From positions 1 to 64,000 of IMG/VR virus record IMGVR_UViG_3300045996_002451: a stretch of DNA of 64,000 nt; one strand, 5' to 3'. Below are positions 8,317-42,931 of the stretch, piece by piece. The notes below the pieces were generated by a model. That model worked only from the letters and a program-made list of their open reading frames with translations, was not told where the DNA came from and searched no databases. Position 1 is the first letter of the stretch. Every line of letters begins with the position of its first letter. Position numbers and translations under genes: made by a program. Source of the DNA: a virus. Lineage: Duplodnaviria; Heunggongvirae; Uroviricota; Caudoviricetes.

Positions 8317-8604
8317 CTACTTGGGGTATTGCGCACCGTATTTGGTGTAATGCTGCTTGGCCAGCGGAATCTGGTTGCTGTCGTCGAAGGTACCGGGACG
8401 CTCAGCGTTCTCCAGGTAGACGCCGACGCAGTCTTCAAACTTGATCTCGGTACCATCTCGACCGAGGGCACCACTCTGCTTACGGCCCAAGACGAAGAGG
8501 CGCTCGTTGGGAATGTCCCAGCGGCTGATGTTTCCGATGATGTCGGCGGCGTTGTTATAGCGAGACCGTGCCGCGGGCTTGAGACGAACTTTGCAAAGTT
8601 TCAT
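8317..8604 (-). CDS. hypothetical protein
   Basis: ORF MKLCKV... Confidence 0.5.
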   Translation of the reverse strand: MKLCKVRLKPAARSRYNNAADIIGNISRWDIPNERLFVLGRKQSGALGRDGTEIKFEDCVGVYLENAERPGTFDDSNQIPLAKQHYTKYGAQYPK

Positions 8605-8745
8605 AGTGTTTAGAGACGACAAGGGCGCTGCAACCAGCGAGTGCGGATGCAGCGCCAAAACTGAGAACGGACGGTTCGATGTCCCCTTCAGTTTACCCTG
8701 CGGAGTCGGGAGCAGCAGTCCGCTTCCCGGCTGAGGTATGACGCG

Positions 8746-9144
8746 TCATACAGACTCGCAGATCCCAGGCGGGTTGTCAAGAGAGTTTAGCAAGTCAGCC
8801 CTCGGTAAGGTAGCTAGAGCGTCAGGGAACGTTTCCCGGACCAGAAACAGGTTCCAGACGCGGGTGATCTCCAAGACCCGACGAACGCGCACTTCCGTGA
8901 TGACCAGGCGTAGCTGAAGGTAGCGATCGGTCAGTCGTTTGAGCAGGCTGATGAGCACACCCACTCCGACCGAGTCGATCTGGTCGACGGCGCTGAGGTC
9001 CAACACGACATTTCCGGAACGCTGTTCCAGGCAGCCCATCACCTCCTGACGGAGGTGGGGCGCTTCAAACACCGTCAACTGTCCTGAGAGACGCAGCACC
9101 CACGTACCGCTTTCCAGATACTGCGTCTCTACTTGCAACATCAT
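8746..9144 (-). CDS. STAS-domain anti-anti-sigma factor (SpoIIAA/RsbV-like)
   Basis: VVLDLSAVDQIDSVGVGVL with phosphorylatable Ser; VRRVLEIT. Confidence 0.9.
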   Translation of the reverse strand: MMLQVETQYLESGTWVLRLSGQLTVFEAPHLRQEVMGCLEQRSGNVVLDLSAVDQIDSVGVGVLISLLKRLTDRYLQLRLVITEVRVRRVLEITRVWNLFLVRETFPDALATLPRADLLNSLDNPPGICESV

Positions 9145-9153
9145 CCCAGACTC

Positions 9154-9678
9154 CTATCTCTGTGCCGGTTCCAGGTAGTACTTCTTCAGCTCGGTCGAAG
9201 CCGTCTTCTCGAGTTTTCGAAGCTCCGCCAGCGCAGGGATCGCCCAGGTATCAAGCTGCCCCGCCTTTTCCAGCTCCGCCAGCTCGCCCATGTTTACCCA
9301 GCGCTGTTCGGTACACTTCGTGGGTTCTACAATACGCAGCGTACCGATATTCCCAAAGAGCGGCAAGCAGAAGAAGACGTGGTTGTGCCAGTGGTGCCCT
9401 GTGTCCGGGTAGATGATCTCGATCATCGGTAGCCGGAGTAGGGGGTACACGACAAGGTTGGTTTCTTCAAACACTTCCCGGCTTACAGCAGTCTCAATCG
9501 GCTCACCGAGGTCTTGCTTGCCCCCGGGAAACTCCCAGAGACCTACGTCGTACGGACAGGCGGGACCCCGCCGCTGAATCAAGAGAGTACCGTCCAGCGG
9601 ATGCTGGATGAGGGCGCCTACACCGATGCCGATAAAGTCTCGGCCATGCTTGAGCTGCGCCACGTTTTGTGTTTCCAT
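9154..9678 (-). CDS. NUDIX hydrolase
   Basis: Nudix box GGKQDLGEPIETAVSREVFEETNL. Confidence 0.92.
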   Translation of the reverse strand: METQNVAQLKHGRDFIGIGVGALIQHPLDGTLLIQRRGPACPYDVGLWEFPGGKQDLGEPIETAVSREVFEETNLVVYPLLRLPMIEIIYPDTGHHWHNHVFFCLPLFGNIGTLRIVEPTKCTEQRWVNMGELAELEKAGQLDTWAIPALAELRKLEKTASTELKKYYLEPAQR

Positions 9679-10982
9679 TCCGGGCCTCGACTTTCTAGAA
9701 GTACTGGAAGTTGGAGGTGGTTTTCCAGGTTAGGGATCAACCGCTCACTGCCGAGCGTGCCGTAACGAGGCAGGGCCTCTTTCAACTTTTCGGTTTTCTT
9801 TTCCCGGCCCGCAAAGTCATCCGGACGGGTGCTGGGGATGTAGTGGATCGGGAACCCGTTGAAGTAACGGATGCATCCCTTGCGCTGTTCCAGCGCTTCC
9901 CACCGGTCCAGGTGGGTCAAGGCGAGACCGTCCAGCGGTCCGCCTACCTGCTGCTGCACGCGCACCGCGTACTCCCACGCCACAAAGTCCGGCCAGCCTA
10001 CCCGAAAGACTCCTTGAGTACTATCGTCGGCACTGAACGTCTCGGGCAACAGCTTTTTTAGTTCCGCGTCTTCGGTCACTAAAGGACCTGCGCCGTGCCG
10101 GGTCATGTACGCCCGCATGACTCCCAGGCGGTGCACGTTACCCGTGTAACTCCGAAGGAGTGTCTCGGCGTTCTTGGAAGTGGTGTGGGACCAGGTGGTG
10201 TGGGGATGGAAACCCCAGTCCTCGTCAAGCAGGACACCCTGCGCGCCCTCGAACACCACGTTGGTTTGTTCCAGGCGTTCCTGGAGCCAGAGATCGCTGA
10301 CGACTTGCTTGTACAGCACGTCTTTGAACAGGCTGCACCGACTCGTGGCTTTACGCAACCAGTCCGTATCCTTCAGGATGTTCCAGTAGGGACCGGCTTC
10401 AGGTAGGTGCGCGATCTGGTCGAAGGTGCCGTCCTCCAGCAACTCTTCGTACTTGTAAAGTTGCATCAACCAGAGTCGATCGGAAAGGTCTGAGTAAGAA
10501 AACTTAACCGCCTCTCCCACCGTCAAGGTGCATCCTGGTTTGTCTTTCAGGAGATCCTGCTGGGCTTCGCCAACGCCCATGCCGCAGGTACCGTGGGCTG
10601 CTGCGCCCCGGGCCAGCTCACGCAACATGTTGGCGGCTTGATGAAACGGGGTAATGACCGAACACTGGTGATCAATGTAAAGTCGGTCAATGGCATCCGC
10701 ATAGCCGATCTTTGTCAGATGGTTGTACTCGTTGTATAAGTTATAGGGGTTGACCAGCATGTGCCGGGAAAGGTAGGTCTCTACTCCCGGCACAAACGTC
10801 CCCGAACCAAACTGGGAGAAGACATGGTCGCGGTCTCCCTCGACTACTGCGTGGCCTGCTTGCGGTCCTCCGTTATAACGCACGACCAGTCCGGCTTTTT
10901 TGTCGCGGACCAGGAAGTCGGTAACGGTACCTTTGCCGCTATCCCCATAACCCAAGTCGACCACGATCCATGCTTCTCTCAT
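9618..10982 (-). CDS. adenylosuccinate synthetase-like protein (divergent PurA family)
   Basis: GYGDSGKG, RYNGGPQAGH, HGTCGMGVG, FEGAQGVLLD, YMTRHGAGP, LTHLD. Confidence 0.9.
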   Translation of the reverse strand: MREAWIVVDLGYGDSGKGTVTDFLVRDKKAGLVVRYNGGPQAGHAVVEGDRDHVFSQFGSGTFVPGVETYLSRHMLVNPYNLYNEYNHLTKIGYADAIDRLYIDHQCSVITPFHQAANMLRELARGAAAHGTCGMGVGEAQQDLLKDKPGCTLTVGEAVKFSYSDLSDRLWLMQLYKYEELLEDGTFDQIAHLPEAGPYWNILKDTDWLRKATSRCSLFKDVLYKQVVSDLWLQERLEQTNVVFEGAQGVLLDEDWGFHPHTTWSHTTSKNAETLLRSYTGNVHRLGVMRAYMTRHGAGPLVTEDAELKKLLPETFSADDSTQGVFRVGWPDFVAWEYAVRVQQQVGGPLDGLALTHLDRWEALEQRKGCIRYFNGFPIHYIPSTRPDDFAGREKKTEKLKEALPRYGTLGSERLIPNLENHLQLPVLLESRGPEWKHKTWRSSSMAETLSASV

Positions 10983-32091: not shown

Positions 32092-33675
32092 TTAGGCAAC
32101 GGGCAGTTCTTCGAGGCGATGACCATACTGCGCGTGTAGCCAGCGAAGTCCCGTCTCAGTATCACTGAAGTCACCGTTGAGCTGCGCTTCGTAGGCTGCC
32201 GCCACCGCTTCTCCGATGTGGGGACCGCCCTTGTACTCGAAGTAAGGCATCACGTGCCGTCCGAGTACCAGTTTGGCGGGCGGCTCGTAGTAGACGTTCA
32301 GCTTTTCGGCTAGCTCCAGCATGAAGAACGCGGCTACCGGCATCCCGGTTGGCAGCGGCGGTCGACCGCTGGCGTCTGCTTCCATCAGCCACGCAAGCAT
32401 CTGGATGTTGGCCGGAGCCAGGCGCTTGGCCAGACGACGCACCACTGTCTCTGGTCGATCGCTGTTCAGGATGTCCCGGTGGGCCAGGTGATCCTCAACC
32501 AATGGTACTACCTGCGCGGTGATCTGCGGATGCATCTTGGTGATCCCGATCCGGTCCAGGAACCGCTGGGCGATGGGACCGCCTGCGCGTTCATGCCCGT
32601 GACTGGTCCAGCGCAGCTTGCCCTTTTTCTCCAGTTGCGCGGTGACTACCGGCTTGGCGAAGTCGTGACAGAGGGCGGAAAACACGAGTACCGCCCTGGC
32701 TTCGGGTTCCAACTTTTCGCGGATAGCGATGTTGTTGGCCGCATCCACGACGTACCGGGTGTGCCGGTAGACATCCCCTTCGGGATGCCACTCCGGGTCT
32801 TGTGGGCACCCATACATCCGGCGCAGTTCTGGGTAGAAAACGTCCCAGAGCGTGCTGGACAAGAACTCCAGTCCGAGGGAAGGACGGGTGCTCTTGGTGG
32901 CCCACTTCAGCCATTCTTCCGCTACTCGTTCCCGAGAGACACAGCGCCCTTTGTCGGTGAGTCGACTGAGGGCGAGGTAGTCGCCGGTGGCACGGTAGAA
33001 GTTGCGCCCGTGCCAGGTCTTTAACTCCGGGTATGCTCCCAGTTCCGGATCCGGCGCATCCTCGCGATACCGCTGGCGGATCTGGATGCCCAGGTTGTTG
33101 AGCAGATCCTCGGTCTGCACCTCGACGTCCCAACCAAAGCGGGAAACGAACTGCATCCCGCGTAGGGCCCGTAGTGGATCGTCCGCGAAGAGGTTCATGT
33201 CTACTGCACGCAGCAGGCCTTGCTGGATGTCTTCGACCCCGTCAAAGAAGTCGAGTAGCTCTCCGGTGAGAGGATCAAACAGGAGCGCGTTACACGTGTA
33301 ATCGCGCCGCCGACAGGCTTCGCTAGGAAGCATCTGAGGATCGTACTCGACTACATAGTCGTGGCGGGTCGGATCGTTGCCCTGCCTGCTGTCTTTACGC
33401 GGTAGGCTGACGTCGTAGGTGGCGCCGTCCACGCGCCACTTGAGGACACCAAAGCTGGAACCTTCCAGTTGGACGGAGCCGGGCTGCTGTTCCAGAAGGT
33501 CCTGAAGAGCTGGAAAAGGGAGGCCGTAGACCTCGACGTCGATGTCCTTGGGTTCGAGTCCTAGGAGGGCGTCGCGGACACAGCCTCCGACCAGGTAGCC
33601 CTGAAGGCCTCTAGCCTTCAGGTCCAGTAGGAACTTCCGGAGTTGGGACGTCACCGGGATCTTTAGGGTCTGCAT
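32092..33675 (-). CDS. cca: tRNA nucleotidyltransferase (CCA-adding/poly(A) polymerase family) with HD domain
   Basis: LVGGCVRD, DIDVE, RRDYTCNAL, DDPLRALR, HPEGDVYRHT, CHDFAK. Confidence 0.9.
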   Translation of the reverse strand: MQTLKIPVTSQLRKFLLDLKARGLQGYLVGGCVRDALLGLEPKDIDVEVYGLPFPALQDLLEQQPGSVQLEGSSFGVLKWRVDGATYDVSLPRKDSRQGNDPTRHDYVVEYDPQMLPSEACRRRDYTCNALLFDPLTGELLDFFDGVEDIQQGLLRAVDMNLFADDPLRALRGMQFVSRFGWDVEVQTEDLLNNLGIQIRQRYREDAPDPELGAYPELKTWHGRNFYRATGDYLALSRLTDKGRCVSRERVAEEWLKWATKSTRPSLGLEFLSSTLWDVFYPELRRMYGCPQDPEWHPEGDVYRHTRYVVDAANNIAIREKLEPEARAVLVFSALCHDFAKPVVTAQLEKKGKLRWTSHGHERAGGPIAQRFLDRIGITKMHPQITAQVVPLVEDHLAHRDILNSDRPETVVRRLAKRLAPANIQMLAWLMEADASGRPPLPTGMPVAAFFMLELAEKLNVYYEPPAKLVLGRHVMPYFEYKGGPHIGEAVAAAYEAQLNGDFSDTETGLRWLHAQYGHRLEELPVA

Positions 33676-35077: not shown

Positions 35078-36802
35078 CTAGATATTGCCCAGCGCAAATT
35101 GCCCCATGATGTTCGGTGTGGAGGCATCAAAACCCACACAATCGATCATTCCCCGATCTTTGGGATCGGCGATGGTGAACCCGTTCGAGACCATACCGCA
35201 CACGATCAGCTTGGCGTCGATGCCCATCTTCTCCCGGTACGCGCGCAGGGCCTGGACGGGCTGTACCGGTCCAGCGTACGTCTCGGAGTCCGTGTAGACC
35301 ACGAAGACATCGAACGGGATCTTCTTTGCCAGCGCGTAACGCATCGGCAAGGAGCAGTCGGTGGAGCCGAAGGCAAGGTTGTTGACTTCGTTGCATGCAT
35401 CGGTCAGCCGCTGGCGCGGACTGACTTTCAGCTCACTGATCCCATCGATCTCGTCCGCTGTTGCGCGGTTACGCGCGTAGTAACCCCGGCTGCCTGCGGT
35501 GAAGCCCGTGATCATGTACTGGTCTTCGACGTTTGCCGTGACCAAGGCCATCGCCACGGAGCCCACGCGCGGGGAGAGCCCCTGCACGCCGCCGCACATT
35601 CCACCCGTCATCGAGCCCGAGACGTCCAGGGCCAGCATCCACCGCTTGCCGGTCGGCTCCACGTTCTTGAACGCCAGGTAGAACGCCTTGTCCAGTCCGT
35701 CCACGATCTGACGCACAGGAGACCAGACGTTGTCCCCTTTCAGGGATCTGCCGGACTCGTACGTCTTCATCGCAGTGAGCACGGCGATCGGATGGATCCG
35801 CGAAGCCGCCAGTCCTGCCGGATCGGTCAGCTTGTTCACCACGAACTTGGTGGCGTCGGACATCGGTCCCAGGACTCCGTAGCGGGTCATGTTCGCCAGG
35901 TTGCGCAGCATCGCCGTAAGACCCATCTCCGGCAGCAAGGCCTCCCAGACAGCCGGGCTGGTCTTGTACTGCGTCGGGATGCACTCGTGCGGCAGCCGGA
36001 ACTCCTTGAGGACCGTGATCACGTCCTTTTCGGTCGGTACCCGCTTGATCAGCTCGAAGCCCCGGATCATATCCGGCAGGTGCTGCGAAAGATCTTCGTA
36101 CATCACCGCACCGGTGGACAGCTCGCTGCCGCACTTGACGCCCTTCTTGCGCGAGACCGTACGCGTACCGAGATCGCCGCCCACGGACCAACGCATCGCC
36201 GCGTCCTTGCTCTTGCTCTCCGTGATCGGATGCGCGAGGCGCAAGACGTCGCGATGGCTCCAGCCGTCCCGCTGCTGATACTTGATCAACTGCAGGGCGA
36301 GGGAGTTGTCCGAGCGCTCCGTGTACCAGTTGGCCACGGCACGTCGCAGTCCTCGACCCCAGCCGCGCATGCCATCGACGTGCTCGCAGAACTGGAACAG
36401 GTGGGTGCCGATGCGACATACCTTGGGTAGTGCCGAGAGGGCAGCCGCCCGGGTCGGGTCGTCGCCATAGCTGGCCGCGATCGCCAGGACGAAGATCGCC
36501 TGGTCGTTCTTGGGTGCTCGCGCCTGATCCGAGACTTCCGTCACGATCTGTACGGTCCGGAGACCATCCGCCTTGACGCACTCCTGTGCCGCCTTCGCGT
36601 TCTCCAGGGTCAGCTTCTGCTGCGTGGCGTAGTAGGAACCGCCTTCACTTCCCAGGATGAGGAAGCGCTGGAGGCGGGTCCAGCAATCCACGCCAAAGAC
36701 GACGCCTCCGGCACTGTTGGGGACCATGTCGGCTTCTCGGCCCGGGATCGCCCGCGTCTGCGGCGTCTTCTTGCTGCTCAATGTACCCTTCAGATAACTC
36801 AT
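35078..36802 (-). CDS. rsr: Ro60 / Rsr TROVE-domain RNA-binding protein
   Basis: NSAGGVVF, RLQRFLILGSEGGSYY, GWGRGLRRAV, KYQQRDGWSHRDVLRLAHP, TAMLRNL, vWA LDVSGSM, VYTDSET. Confidence 0.97.
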   Translation of the reverse strand: MSYLKGTLSSKKTPQTRAIPGREADMVPNSAGGVVFGVDCWTRLQRFLILGSEGGSYYATQQKLTLENAKAAQECVKADGLRTVQIVTEVSDQARAPKNDQAIFVLAIAASYGDDPTRAAALSALPKVCRIGTHLFQFCEHVDGMRGWGRGLRRAVANWYTERSDNSLALQLIKYQQRDGWSHRDVLRLAHPITESKSKDAAMRWSVGGDLGTRTVSRKKGVKCGSELSTGAVMYEDLSQHLPDMIRGFELIKRVPTEKDVITVLKEFRLPHECIPTQYKTSPAVWEALLPEMGLTAMLRNLANMTRYGVLGPMSDATKFVVNKLTDPAGLAASRIHPIAVLTAMKTYESGRSLKGDNVWSPVRQIVDGLDKAFYLAFKNVEPTGKRWMLALDVSGSMTGGMCGGVQGLSPRVGSVAMALVTANVEDQYMITGFTAGSRGYYARNRATADEIDGISELKVSPRQRLTDACNEVNNLAFGSTDCSLPMRYALAKKIPFDVFVVYTDSETYAGPVQPVQALRAYREKMGIDAKLIVCGMVSNGFTIADPKDRGMIDCVGFDASTPNIMGQFALGNI

Positions 36803-36864: not shown

Positions 36865-37019
36865 CAGGGGAGGTAGGAGTCGAACCTACACGACACACTG
36901 CCAAGTCGTTATCTCAACAGTAGCAGACGGGAAAGCTAACGACACTCGACCGTACTGCTTATTACCGTGTCTGACCCAGGGTTGGTCCACTGGCGCTCTG
37001 ACCATTAAGCTACTCCCCT
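36865..37019 (-). ncRNA. tRNA-like RNA with ~80-nt insert in variable-arm position (possible Y module)
   Basis: AGGGGAG/CTCCCCT acceptor, canonical D and T arms; insert GACAC...GGTCGAGTGTCGTTA...TAACGACTTGGC...GTGTC. Confidence 0.7.
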
Positions 37020-37335: not shown

Positions 37336-37404
37336 TTAGGACAGGCAAGTTGATTGAAGTGGGGAGTTCATGCGAGATAACCCACCTCATTCGGCCCGTC
37401 TTAA
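37336..37404 (-). ncRNA. short Y RNA-like (Ro60-binding helix)
   Basis: GACGGGCCGAATG...GGGTTATC...ACTTGCCTGTC, bulged C. Confidence 0.75.
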
Positions 37405-38092: not shown

Positions 38093-38236
38093 CGCCAGGG
38101 GATGGACTCGAACCACCGACCCGTAGTGTATGGTAACCTTCAAACGCCGACCCCGACCAGGGTAGTTAGCCCTCGCTGAGATAAGTGTGTAAGAAGACAT
38201 GTTGGACTGCTGCTCTACCAACTGAGCTACCCTGGC
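38093..38236 (-). ncRNA. tRNA with circularly permuted Y module in anticodon arm
   Basis: GCCAGGG/CCCTGGC, canonical D and T arms; insert TCTTC..ACTTATCTC-hairpin-GGGGTCGG..GAAGGTTACC. Confidence 0.7.
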
Positions 38237-38242
38237 AAGGGA

Positions 38243-38309
38243 GTCCGGGCAAGTGGTTGCGGCGAGGGGTGTTACTTGAAAGGGTAACCCTCATTGCTCC
38301 GGCCCGAAC
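38243..38309 (-). ncRNA. short Y RNA-like
   Basis: GTTCGGGCCGGAG...GGGTTACC...ACTTGCCCGGAC. Confidence 0.75.
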
Positions 38310-38315
38310 AAAAAC

Positions 38316-38851: not shown

Positions 38852-39163
38852 TCAGTCGGACCAGGTAATCTGGGCGTCATCCCAGCGCACGTTGTACTCG
38901 ACCGGGGAGACGGTGGGCCACTCGCCGACCCAGAGGATCTGAGTCTGCTCTTCGGAAGGCCCGTCGGAGTAAGCCGAGAACTCCTGTCCAGTCTGGGGAC
39001 CCGTCAGGTTCTGCGCCGTGGTGAACCCGGTCCACGGATCGTAGGACCGCACCGCGCACGTTTCTACTGTGGTCGCAGTGGGTTCCGCGCGGCTCTGGGT
39101 GCCTGGAAAAAGAAGACTGGCTGCGAGGGCCAGGATCAGGGCGAACAGTACTGGGAACTTCAT
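38852..39163 (-). CDS. putative secreted protein
   Basis: signal peptide MKFPVLFALILALAASLL...SRA; GGAGG RBS. Confidence 0.7.
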   Translation of the reverse strand: MKFPVLFALILALAASLLFPGTQSRAEPTATTVETCAVRSYDPWTGFTTAQNLTGPQTGQEFSAYSDGPSEEQTQILWVGEWPTVSPVEYNVRWDDAQITWSD

Positions 39164-39221
39164 GGAAACCTCCGTTCAGGTAAAAGATTACGAACTGCTC
39201 AGGTTACCCGAGCGTGGTTAG

Positions 39222-39341
39222 GTGGGGAAGCAGGAATCGAACCTGCGTCTCGATCTCCTCAAGATAAACCTTCAACACCGGCCCATTGCTGGACAAAAAA
39301 GAAGAAGGGTTTACGCGCCTTGCCACTAGGCCATTCCCCAC
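39222..39341 (-). ncRNA. tRNA with circularly permuted Y module in anticodon arm
   Basis: GTGGGGAA/TTCCCCAC, D and T arms; TAAACCCTTC..TTGTCCA-GCAA-TGGGCCGG..GAAGGTTTA. Confidence 0.8.
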
Positions 39342-39414
39342 ATGTGATCCGCTATGAAATTGAAACAGTCTGGGTAGGGACGGAGGTGCTGACGCCCCCA
39401 CCCCGACTGCGCTA

Positions 39415-39548
39415 GGACCAACTACCTCGATTACGCCAGGCAGCCCACGAGAAGGCACTTCCGGTCTAGGGAGCACAGCGATCCCTCGCTGTTCCGGTCA
39501 CCCGTTCTGGGTGGAGACAGTAACTCCCACCTGTTTACCTGCTAGTCC
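39415..39548 (-). ncRNA. unknown structured RNA, copy A
   Basis: paralog of 39688..39827 with compensatory stem changes. Confidence 0.7.
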
Positions 39549-39552
39549 AATA

Positions 39553-39625
39553 GAGCGGGAGAGGGACTTGAACCCTCAGTCTTTGGGTTATGAGCCCAAC
39601 GTTTTACCAATTACACTATCCCGCA
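39553..39625 (-). tRNA. tRNA-Met(CAT), initiator-like
   Basis: unpaired 1:72, TTGGG-CTCATAA-CCCAA with three consecutive G-C pairs; no encoded CCA. Confidence 0.88.
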
Positions 39626-39687
39626 ACAAATGAGGGTTAGGTAGGGGACGACCACCCGTTGTCTTGATCTGTCCCCTACCGTTCTCC

Positions 39688-39827
39688 AGAGTTAGACATC
39701 CCCGATTACAGCAGGCACCACACGGGAAGGCGCGTCCGGTCAGAGTGCAAAGGCATCCCTGCCCTTTCCGACCTCTGTTCTAGAGGTTAGATACGTTAAC
39801 ACTCACCTGTTTGCCTTGTCTAACTCT
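39688..39827 (-). ncRNA. unknown structured RNA, copy B
   Basis: 11-bp terminal stem AGAGTTAGACA/TGTCTAACTCT; conserved loops AGAAC, GGGA, TTCYCGTG. Confidence 0.7.
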
Positions 39828-40248
39828 TCCGTAGCTACTTCCTGACGGCTATCGCTTTTCGAACCTCACGGGAAGTGATCCCTTCGTCAACATTCAACCT
39901 ACCCCGTATTAAACGGATCGATCTAGTTAACCACGCAGTAAACTGCGCCGGAGGAACGTGTCCGGTCTTGCGCTGGACGAACCTAGCTCAGACTACCCCA
40001 CAAGGGTGGTTATCAGGTGGCCCGACTGCGTCTTGCGACGTCACCACGGTTGGGCCTTCTTCAGGTGTTACCCCGAAGCCGTTATTTAGTTGTGATTGCG
40101 TCAACCTACACATTCAGGGACCACGGGACTAGCCCCCTGAACCCTTCCTGCGCCCCAGTTCCCGATTCCGGGCGCAGCTCTCCACGGTACCTCGCTGTTT
40201 GCACGTTCAAGAAAGTTCGTGCTCCAGCTTCCCTCGGTTGACACAGCT

Positions 40249-41365: not shown

Positions 41366-41394
41366 GCTTTACCTCACGATGAAGTTGTCAAAGA

Positions 41395-41467
41395 TTGAGC
41401 AGGCAAGTTAAGCGGGGCTGGGGGTGATCGTTAACAGTGATAACCCAATCCCATTCGGCCCGATCAA
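41395..41467 (-). ncRNA. short Y RNA-like
   Basis: TTGATCGGGCCGAATG..GGGTTATC..ACTTGCCTGCTCAA. Confidence 0.75.
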
Positions 41468-41502: not shown

Positions 41503-41531
41503 AGCTTAAGCTACAAACAAACGCCTGTCAA
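41503..41531 (-). promoter_or_regulatory. sigma70-type promoter heading the RNA cluster
   Basis: TTGACA-17 nt-TAAGCT on minus strand about 35 nt before first Y RNA. Confidence 0.75.
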
Positions 41532-42085: not shown

Positions 42086-42931
42086 TTACACGGGTACTCG
42101 GCGCGTGAGTTCCTGCCGGATCTCTTCCAGCATGGCGCCCATATGATTCTGGCCCTGTTCATCCGGCCCATCGCCCCAGTACGCATCCCACGGTGCCGCA
42201 TGAATGAGCGTTCTGCCCCCCGTAGCGAGGAGACGTTCTGCCAGCAGTGGGTGCTGATCGAACTTGGCCCATAAGAGCTGAGCCATCACGTGTCCGCGTA
42301 AGGTGTCCCAGTCCGGGATCGCTTCGACCTTACCACCCAGCTTCTTCGCCGCTTCCGGGGTCGGAGCTAGCTCTACTTTGGTCCGCTCCTTCGGGTCTGC
42401 GCACTTGGCACCCTGATAGGCGTGCTCCGCAGTCAGCCAGAGCGTTCCCTCGAAGATCACGGGGTGTGAGCTGAAATTACTCAGCCAACTCCACTCCGGC
42501 GTCTTGCTGTTGAACCGAATGGCGTCATCCGGCTGAAACCGGTGGGGCCAGCGCTGCGCGGCTTCCTGGATCAAGAGATGCGTGTGACAGAACTGATTGT
42601 CGGCACAATAGCAACAGAGCACCGCGCGGCCCTTCTTTTCCAGACCAAAGAGATAGAGCTGTCGCCAGGAGGCTCCGGCAGACCGCATGATCGCCTGGTA
42701 CTGCTCAGTATACTCGGCGTCGCTCAGCGGTGGGTAGCCTGGGTACGGCATCGGGAGACCGCGCTGGAGCGCCGTGTGATTCTTGTGTCCCAGGACCATC
42801 GGCCAGTTAGGCGCGAAGCCGCGGGCCCAGTCTTTACCGCTCTTGACCGTCACGTCCACGTAGTGGTCTAGCAGTGGGGTGGAGCCGCGTAGTTGGGCCC
42901 GGCGTAATTGGACTACCTGGATCTCACTCAT
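42086..42931 (-). CDS. NADAR (YbiA-like) domain protein with N-terminal Cys/His domain
   Basis: WLSNF, TAEHAYQGAK, AKFDQH, LLATG, DAYWG, GQNHMG; N-term LCCYC...CHTH. Confidence 0.9.
   Translation of the reverse strand: MSEIQVVQLRRAQLRGSTPLLDHYVDVTVKSGKDWARGFAPNWPMVLGHKNHTALQRGLPMPYPGYPPLSDAEYTEQYQAIMRSAGASWRQLYLFGLEKKGRAVLCCYCADNQFCHTHLLIQEAAQRWPHRFQPDDAIRFNSKTPEWSWLSNFSSHPVIFEGTLWLTAEHAYQGAKCADPKERTKVELAPTPEAAKKLGGKVEAIPDWDTLRGHVMAQLLWAKFDQHPLLAERLLATGGRTLIHAAPWDAYWGDGPDEQGQNHMGAMLEEIRQELTRRVPV

Follow-up and report, generated by a model that had tools for sequence, protein, structure and literature searches.

Two RNA copies on the minus strand of a large phage genome, here called A and B, are almost certainly paralogues within an undescribed family of structured phage RNAs of about 135–190 nt; the existence of the family and its fold are both almost certain. 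The window, meaning the whole stretch of DNA analysed, covers the opening 64 kb of a viral record of 211,171 bp, which is estimated to be 98% complete. The family has 11 members on 10 records, and the A/B phage is the only carrier with two copies; the other records have one each. Whole collections were searched by exact patterns alone, so this count refers to members known so far. The element occurs in unrelated kinds of phage, among them the jumbo-type phage of 211 kb, PAJU2-like siphophages, and phages whose genomes of ~72 kb have terminal repeats.

The two RNA copies and their surroundings

A first-pass annotation of the window proposed two structured RNA copies on either side of an initiator tRNA gene. 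Both are confirmed at the positions that it gave, on the minus strand (Table 1), as is the start of copy A 4 nt past the 3′ end of the tRNA, which lies at 39553. The copies are ~80% identical in alignment, with long identical blocks that alternate with differing segments; the shared blocks and the differing yet paired stems that had been described are all seen. A covariance model made from copy A alone, with its minimum-free-energy structure, detects copy B with 84 bits (E 3e-16). The same model finds no third copy in the 211-kb genome, and nhmmer agrees. Copy A scores 148 bits against model R2, a covariance model built solely from copies A and B.

The RNA is read from the minus strand on two grounds. 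Minus-strand folding is better (−52 and −51.6 kcal/mol for A and B) compared to the plus strand (−40.7 and −44.9 kcal/mol), and two U-G pairs that are constant across the family would be A-C mismatches if the opposite strand were read. The whole cluster around A and B is likewise on the minus strand. The tRNA-Met(CAU) between the copies is initiator-like, with three G-C pairs at the base of the anticodon stem, position 1:72 unpaired, and CCA not encoded. Each copy is followed directly by a stable hairpin. The two hairpins align with each other and are thus related, which implies that duplication took in the RNA together with its hairpin. The hairpin behind copy A could be a 3′ stabilizer or a weak terminator.

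Table 1. Positions in the window of the two RNA copies, their parts and the adjoining features
Feature	Position	Strand	Remarks
Copy A	39415..39548	−	134 nt; P1, P2, A-rich junction, P3, distal three-way junction with hairpins P4/P5, then P6
P6 of copy A	39425..39452	−	5-bp stem, nearly invariant 18-nt loop ending GUAAU
Pseudoknot 5′ strand (CAGGU), copy A	39529..39533	−	Just past AAA-rich junction; candidate
Pseudoknot 3′ strand (GCCUG), copy A	39437..39441	−	P6 loop; candidate
Hairpin directly after copy A	39365..39410	−	−30.3 kcal/mol, z −3.8; U-rich stretch next
tRNA-Met(CAU)	39553..39625	−	Between A and B; ARAGORN; Rfam tRNA model 62 bits
Hairpin directly after copy B	39640..39680	−	Upstream of tRNA; −25.6 kcal/mol, z −2.3
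Copy B	39688..39827	−	140 nt with own 10-bp P1; model match 39690–39825
Pseudoknot 5′ strand, copy B	39805..39809	−	Candidate
Pseudoknot 3′ strand, copy B	39712..39716	−	P6 loop; candidate

A further element of 145 nt occurs nearby at 40099–40243 (−). It has a closing stem of 7–10 bp and folds at −60.7 kcal/mol (z −2.6). Its outer helices and a UAG bulge weakly resemble the A/B family, and it may be a very divergent relative or may be unrelated. It was rejected as a divergent third copy, with a score of just 11.5 bits and E 0.13 with filters off.

Fold and covariation

The claim that A and B are structured RNAs with real covariation is supported by alignments of the two copies and of the family. 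In the A/B structural alignment, 98.8% of cells are paired and 14 of 42 pairs have compensatory changes, that is, changes on both sides. None of 500 shuffles reaches the observed result, and sliding the partners by 1–3 columns gives at most one compensatory pair. A plain MAFFT alignment of the two copies still yields 10 compensatory pairs. The family alignment has 10 members and dates from a stage before all 11 were known; in it, 95.9% of cells are paired and 28 pairs have both-side changes, in 80 cells. Again, no shuffle out of 500 matches this, and slid controls pair 36–46% of cells.

The closing stem P1 differs entirely in sequence between A and B; across the 10-member alignment it is 100% paired and compensatory in seven of its eight pairs. 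It extends outward to roughly 15–22 bp in four members (L067, L068, L069, and L071). P2 is a short conserved stem, followed by an A-rich junction and then by P3, which leads to a three-way junction with P4 and P5. P6 is a separate, bulged hairpin that comes directly after the 3′ strand of P2, and its loop is nearly invariant across the family. The middle pair of its stem is AU, CG, GC, or UA in different members, and its basal U-G pair is constant in 10/10. The variable middle (P3b, P4, and P5) differs in length and is wholly replaced in L065. Because this domain is variable and replaceable, the core of the RNA is considered to consist of P1, P2, the junction, and P6. Approximately 40 near-invariant unpaired or junction nucleotides are kept across phages of 48–69% G+C.

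This fold changes the reading of several motifs. The sequence TTCYCGTG, which had been taken for a loop, spans two helices: it makes up the 3′ strand of P2 and then continues as the 5′ strand of P6, where its Y covaries with an R on the opposite strand. The loops AGAAC and GGGA, reported as conserved, are so between A and B and not in the wider family. Kissing loops, in which GGGA or GAA would pair with TTCYC, had also been suggested. They are not supported, given the position of UUCYC inside the covarying helices P2 and P6, and that of the GGGA and AGAAC loops on the variable domain, where they are swapped for unrelated hairpins in other members.

Within the core, the CAGGU strand may form a pseudoknot with GCCUG in the P6 loop. 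All 45 of 45 family cells are paired in this candidate helix. Variation is confined to one pair, C-G in L068, U-A in L076, and U-G in the other seven members, all of which keep the pairing. P3a, a local helix that would compete with it, is broken in two of nine members, and a 3-bp helix inside the P6 loop shows one compensatory change. The changes in CAGGU-GCCUG are one-sided, and the evidence is suggestive of a pseudoknot, not conclusive.

Relatives in other phages

Model R2 scores nine further loci, on nine other viral contigs, at 25–74 bits. These loci were reached by two routes. A pattern limited to the P6 loop returned seven viral contigs, and R2 scores all seven at 25–73 bits, with full-length matches wherever the contig permits. 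These seven members are 155–192 nt long and keep the 5′ block (P2, AAA-rich junction, and CAGG), which is absent from the search pattern. Three of the seven loci adjoin hallmark genes of a PAJU2-like siphophage lineage. By the second route, contigs that encode close relatives of the PAJU2-like terminase were fetched independently of any sequence pattern, and terminase gene order led to L076 (74 bits) and L080 (70 bits). The P6 loop is exact in L080 and has one change in L076. Invariance of this loop rests mainly on A, B, L076, and L080, because seven of the nine new members were found by a pattern that fixes much of it.

Other searches mark out where the element was not encountered. A blastn search of the region against 50,697 phage records had the tRNA as its sole match, and querying phages, Escherichia coli genomes, and plasmids with two of the homologues turned up no real match. 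Five A/B-derived patterns (three on viral contigs, one on metagenome contigs, and one on genome contigs) returned nothing, or chance matches that the models rejected; they relied on GACCGGA, which is specific to A and B. A sixth pattern, for the 5′ block, returned nothing in viral contigs. In other phages, no element is present around Ro60, the CCA-adding enzyme, or the small cluster ORF. It was not found in samples from one bacterial phylum, comprising 151 genomes searched with the model and 401 searched with a pattern. The terminase of the A/B phage has no close relative in IMG/VR, and its nearest cultured relatives are ~30% identical.

Genomic contexts, gain, and loss

The contexts of the element are varied. 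Single-copy carriers include two complete genomes of about 72–74 kb with terminal repeats. In four members (L068, L069, L076, and L080), the element lies 11 nt past the stop codon of the terminase large-subunit gene, TerL. In L070, an array of six tRNAs begins 26 nt downstream, and in L067 tRNAs lie 1.7 kb away. The L066 member has a canonical intrinsic terminator 28 nt downstream, and in L071 the genes on both sides occupy the opposite strand to the element. A special tie to tRNA-fMet is not supported: other members occur after a terminase gene, by other tRNAs, or alone. Across the family, what lies downstream is an unrelated ORF, a gene for endonuclease VII, or, in three cases, tRNAs. Neither a constant position upstream of functionally related genes nor a conserved neighbouring protein common to the members was seen across the family loci.

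Close relatives differ in whether they have the element. The cultured relatives PAJU2, KPP5665-2, and 16-3 have no element after TerL, and L081 is without it although its TerL is 85% identical to that of L068. In L077 and L078, an HNH endonuclease gene (HNH_3) occupies the same post-TerL spot. Presence and absence among relatives, together with the HNH gene, indicate that the post-TerL site is an insertion hot spot and that the RNA is accessory. L077 (377–595) and L078 (182–400) also encode a small protein with an Acb2/Tad1-hairpin domain just upstream of the terminase genes; this domain belongs to a family of cyclic-nucleotide sponges.

Comparison with known RNAs

The first-pass annotation did not recognize the RNA family, and this was borne out by Rfam 15. 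A scan at gathering score returns tRNAs alone and leaves A and B unmatched. For A and B, relaxing the threshold to E ≤ 10 adds just noise of 9–14 bits, whether the 5-kb cluster or each copy by itself is scanned. On the seven carrier loci, tRNAs alone exceed gathering score.

Two phage RNAs invite comparison. The small stable T4 RNAs rnaC and rnaD (species 1 and 2 RNAs; NC_000866 annotation) are, like A and B, two related RNAs of ~120–140 nt directly 3′ of a tRNA; they are part of a phage tRNA cluster, have no known function, and are released by tRNA-type processing. Model R1, with filters off, gives at most 6.5 bits on the T4 locus, the folds differ from the A/B family, and rnaC ends in a tRNA-like T arm, whereas the A/B family has none. 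Like the A/B family, the phi29 pRNA is phage-encoded, similar in size, and contains a three-way junction, and the four members directly after a terminase gene recall it; other members are far from packaging genes. The terminases of the carriers are HK97-type or large myovirus-type, not phi29-type motors, and the pRNA model is unmatched on A, B, and the 5-kb cluster at E ≤ 10 and does not reach gathering score on seven carrier loci.

Further candidates were tried and rejected. Mimicry of rRNA is not indicated, as 10–11-mers in common with E. coli 16S and 23S rRNA occur at chance level. A short ORF from the conserved GUG (8–10 codons) or a 5-codon P6 ORF would be too short and start inside a helix, and the substitutions are RNA-like. 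Likenesses to kink-turns, loop E, group II domain 5, and SRP Alu were also considered, and none fits.

Proposed role and alternatives

Tentatively, and at a little short of an even chance, we favour a reading in which the family is an autonomous, processed, and stable non-coding RNA that binds a partner; we infer its transcription, ends, and stability. The RNA would be a gene product in its own right and not a leader. It would be cut from longer transcripts by the enzymes that trim adjacent tRNAs or by double-strand-specific cleavage of the long P1, and once excised would accumulate as a stable species. Pairing of CAGGU with GCCUG would give a compact pseudoknotted core in which the A-rich strand runs along a helix, and this invariant core would be presented in trans to a conserved partner, either protein or RNA, that belongs to the host or the phage. 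As an accessory, moron-like element, it would be gained and lost by phages, and in the 211-kb phage it would have been duplicated with its 3′ hairpin and placed in a cluster of non-coding RNAs. Points in favour of autonomy are the opposite-strand position in L071, the terminator in L066, the tRNA array in L070, the tRNA adjacency and hairpins of A and B, the long P1, and the prevalence of single copies. An accessory nature is suggested by presence and absence after TerL in relatives, the HNH gene at the same spot, and the lack of a conserved neighbour protein.

A catalytic or ligand-binding class, either a self-cleaving ribozyme or an aptamer, is possible, if on balance unlikely. In such a class, a pseudoknotted core of ~60 nt would be the active site, the variable domain would be a scaffold, and the whole would be a mobile accessory module.

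It is unlikely that the element is a new catalytic RNA, self-cleaving or of another kind, whose role is to cut polycistronic phage transcripts and release tRNA ends, for instance, or split message segments. A small, strongly conserved pseudoknotted core with variable peripheral stems would suit such an activity, as would an intergenic position that is co-oriented with its neighbours in most loci. Adjacency to tRNAs in three contexts recalls the HDV-like theta ribozymes of gut phages, which adjoin phage tRNAs and are also small pseudoknotted RNAs (PMC10879173), the pseudoknot of the A/B family being a candidate. Theta ribozymes, however, adopt the HDV fold, a nested double pseudoknot in which P1 begins at the cleavage site and the 3′ end pairs in P2, and the site that they cut is their own 5′ end, whereas the 5′ and 3′ ends of the A/B family pair together in the covarying P1. 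The topology differs from that of HDV ribozymes, and HDV models, like known ribozyme models in general, are unmatched on A and B even at E ≤ 10. A long stable closing stem and the dedicated terminator of L066 would, moreover, be superfluous for a processing ribozyme.

A role in cis, as a riboswitch-like or protein-binding sensor or leader that governs whatever lies downstream via termination or translation, is decidedly unlikely. Terminator-like hairpins come directly after A, B, and the L066 member, and the compact core is aptamer-like. Same-strand ORFs that start 27–53 nt downstream in at least L066, L068, and L069, and possibly at 0–7 nt in L065 and L067, fit a leader as well as an autonomous RNA. 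Against a leader, the downstream genes are mutually unrelated and are tRNAs in three cases, the L071 element is on the opposite strand to its neighbours, and P1 reaches ~20 bp and does not visibly compete with the downstream hairpins, no convincing alternative pairing having been found.

We consider it very unlikely that the element is a passive processing or insulating module, i.e., a long hairpin for RNase III-type cleavage or transcript stabilization with no specific partner. Its extended closing stems and its location between late-operon genes, directly after TerL, are what such a module would have, but a cleavage hairpin does not need the near-invariant unpaired and junction nucleotides that are kept across phages of such different G+C content.

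The Ro60 and Y-RNA cluster of the A/B phage

Copies A and B lie in a cluster with other RNA-related genes. The ORF at 35078–36802 (−) is a Ro60 orthologue with TROVE and vWA_Ro60 domains, and that at 32092–33675 (−) is a CCA-adding-type nucleotidyltransferase with an HD domain. Near the RNA cluster, the ORF at 42086–42931 (−) encodes a NADAR/DUF488 protein. Together, these three proteins look like an RNA repair or quality-control module. Between Ro60 and a putative promoter near 41531, tRNAs, tRNA-like RNAs, and Y-RNA-type helices are found on the minus strand. Short hairpins with a bulged helix, GGGCCGRA / CUUGYC, occur at 37338–37403, 38242–38311, and 41390–41463 (all −); the first of these matches the Rfam nematode stem-bulge (Y-like) RNA with 41.6 bits (gathering 38) and Y_RNA with 26 bits. 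Matches to the tRNA model at 38093–38236 and 36865–37019 (−) have anticodon-loop inserts, of 77 nt in the former and of similar size, judged from match length, in the latter. In the tRNA frame at 39215–39345 (−), a Y-type hairpin stands in place of the anticodon region. None of these last three ranges has an evident group I intron core. A 103-aa ORF at 38852–39163 (−), inside the non-coding cluster, has a signal-peptide-like N terminus and no Pfam match.

Bacterial Y RNAs have a GNCGAA-type Ro60-binding motif in the 5′ strand of a bulged terminal helix, and YrlA and YrlB combine a long terminal stem with modular distal domains, as the A/B family does (PMC4201824). Y RNAs also share the cluster of A and B upstream of Ro60, and GACCGGA of A and B is one base from GGCCGGA, a variant of the 5′ strand of the Y helix in the cluster. 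The A/B family, in contrast to Y RNAs, has no Ro60-binding motif, no bulged helix, and no tRNA-like D or T arms. Where GNCGAA might be sought, A and B have CCGGAA, in another context and in a segment that varies across the family. A Y-type helix formed via GACCGGA was rejected, with a possible partner in copy A only and none in copy B. No TROVE gene is found in five carrier records, which include the two complete genomes.

That the element is an unusual Y RNA or a Ro60 substrate mimic, as its place among Y-like helices and tRNA-like RNAs upstream of Ro60 and the one-base difference in GACCGGA might suggest, is most improbable given that this segment is not conserved in the family and lacks a matching 3′ strand in copy B, that the fit to GNCGAA is poor (PMC4201824), that two complete carrier genomes have no TROVE gene, and that the closest Ro60-encoding phages are without the element. 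The Ro60/Y-RNA setting of A and B is probably incidental, because the two complete carriers do without Ro60.

Two other observations concern such phages. A 214-kb T4-like Logan contig (L021), similar in gene order to Sinorhizobium phage Phosso, has 1.5 kb without a gene call just upstream of Ro60 (8491–10001). This stretch may be another Y-RNA cluster; neither Rfam nor the covariance model matches within it. In the window, a 454-aa protein at 9618–10982 (−) matches PHROG 1211 (E 9e-72), named as adenylosuccinate-synthetase-like and for modified-adenine synthesis, and genes for ribonucleotide reductase and nicotinamide phosphoribosyltransferase are nearby. The PHROG 1211 match hints that the phage DNA may have a modified base.

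Significance

RNA classes that pair strong covariation with a long invariant core are, to our knowledge, rare. Earlier classes of this kind often proved to act as ribozymes or riboswitches, or as components of ribonucleoprotein machines. Bench work on the A/B family can begin directly from a defined fold, with a candidate pseudoknot that lends itself to testing and several natural variants. For the 211-kb phage, the results portray its Ro60/Y-RNA cluster as a general store of non-coding RNA genes that extends beyond partners of Ro60. For the family, whose members we tentatively regard as stable trans-acting RNAs, the element occurs at gene-insertion hot spots in unrelated phages and is gained and lost between close relatives, a pattern characteristic of accessory roles, for example in host takeover or counter-defence.
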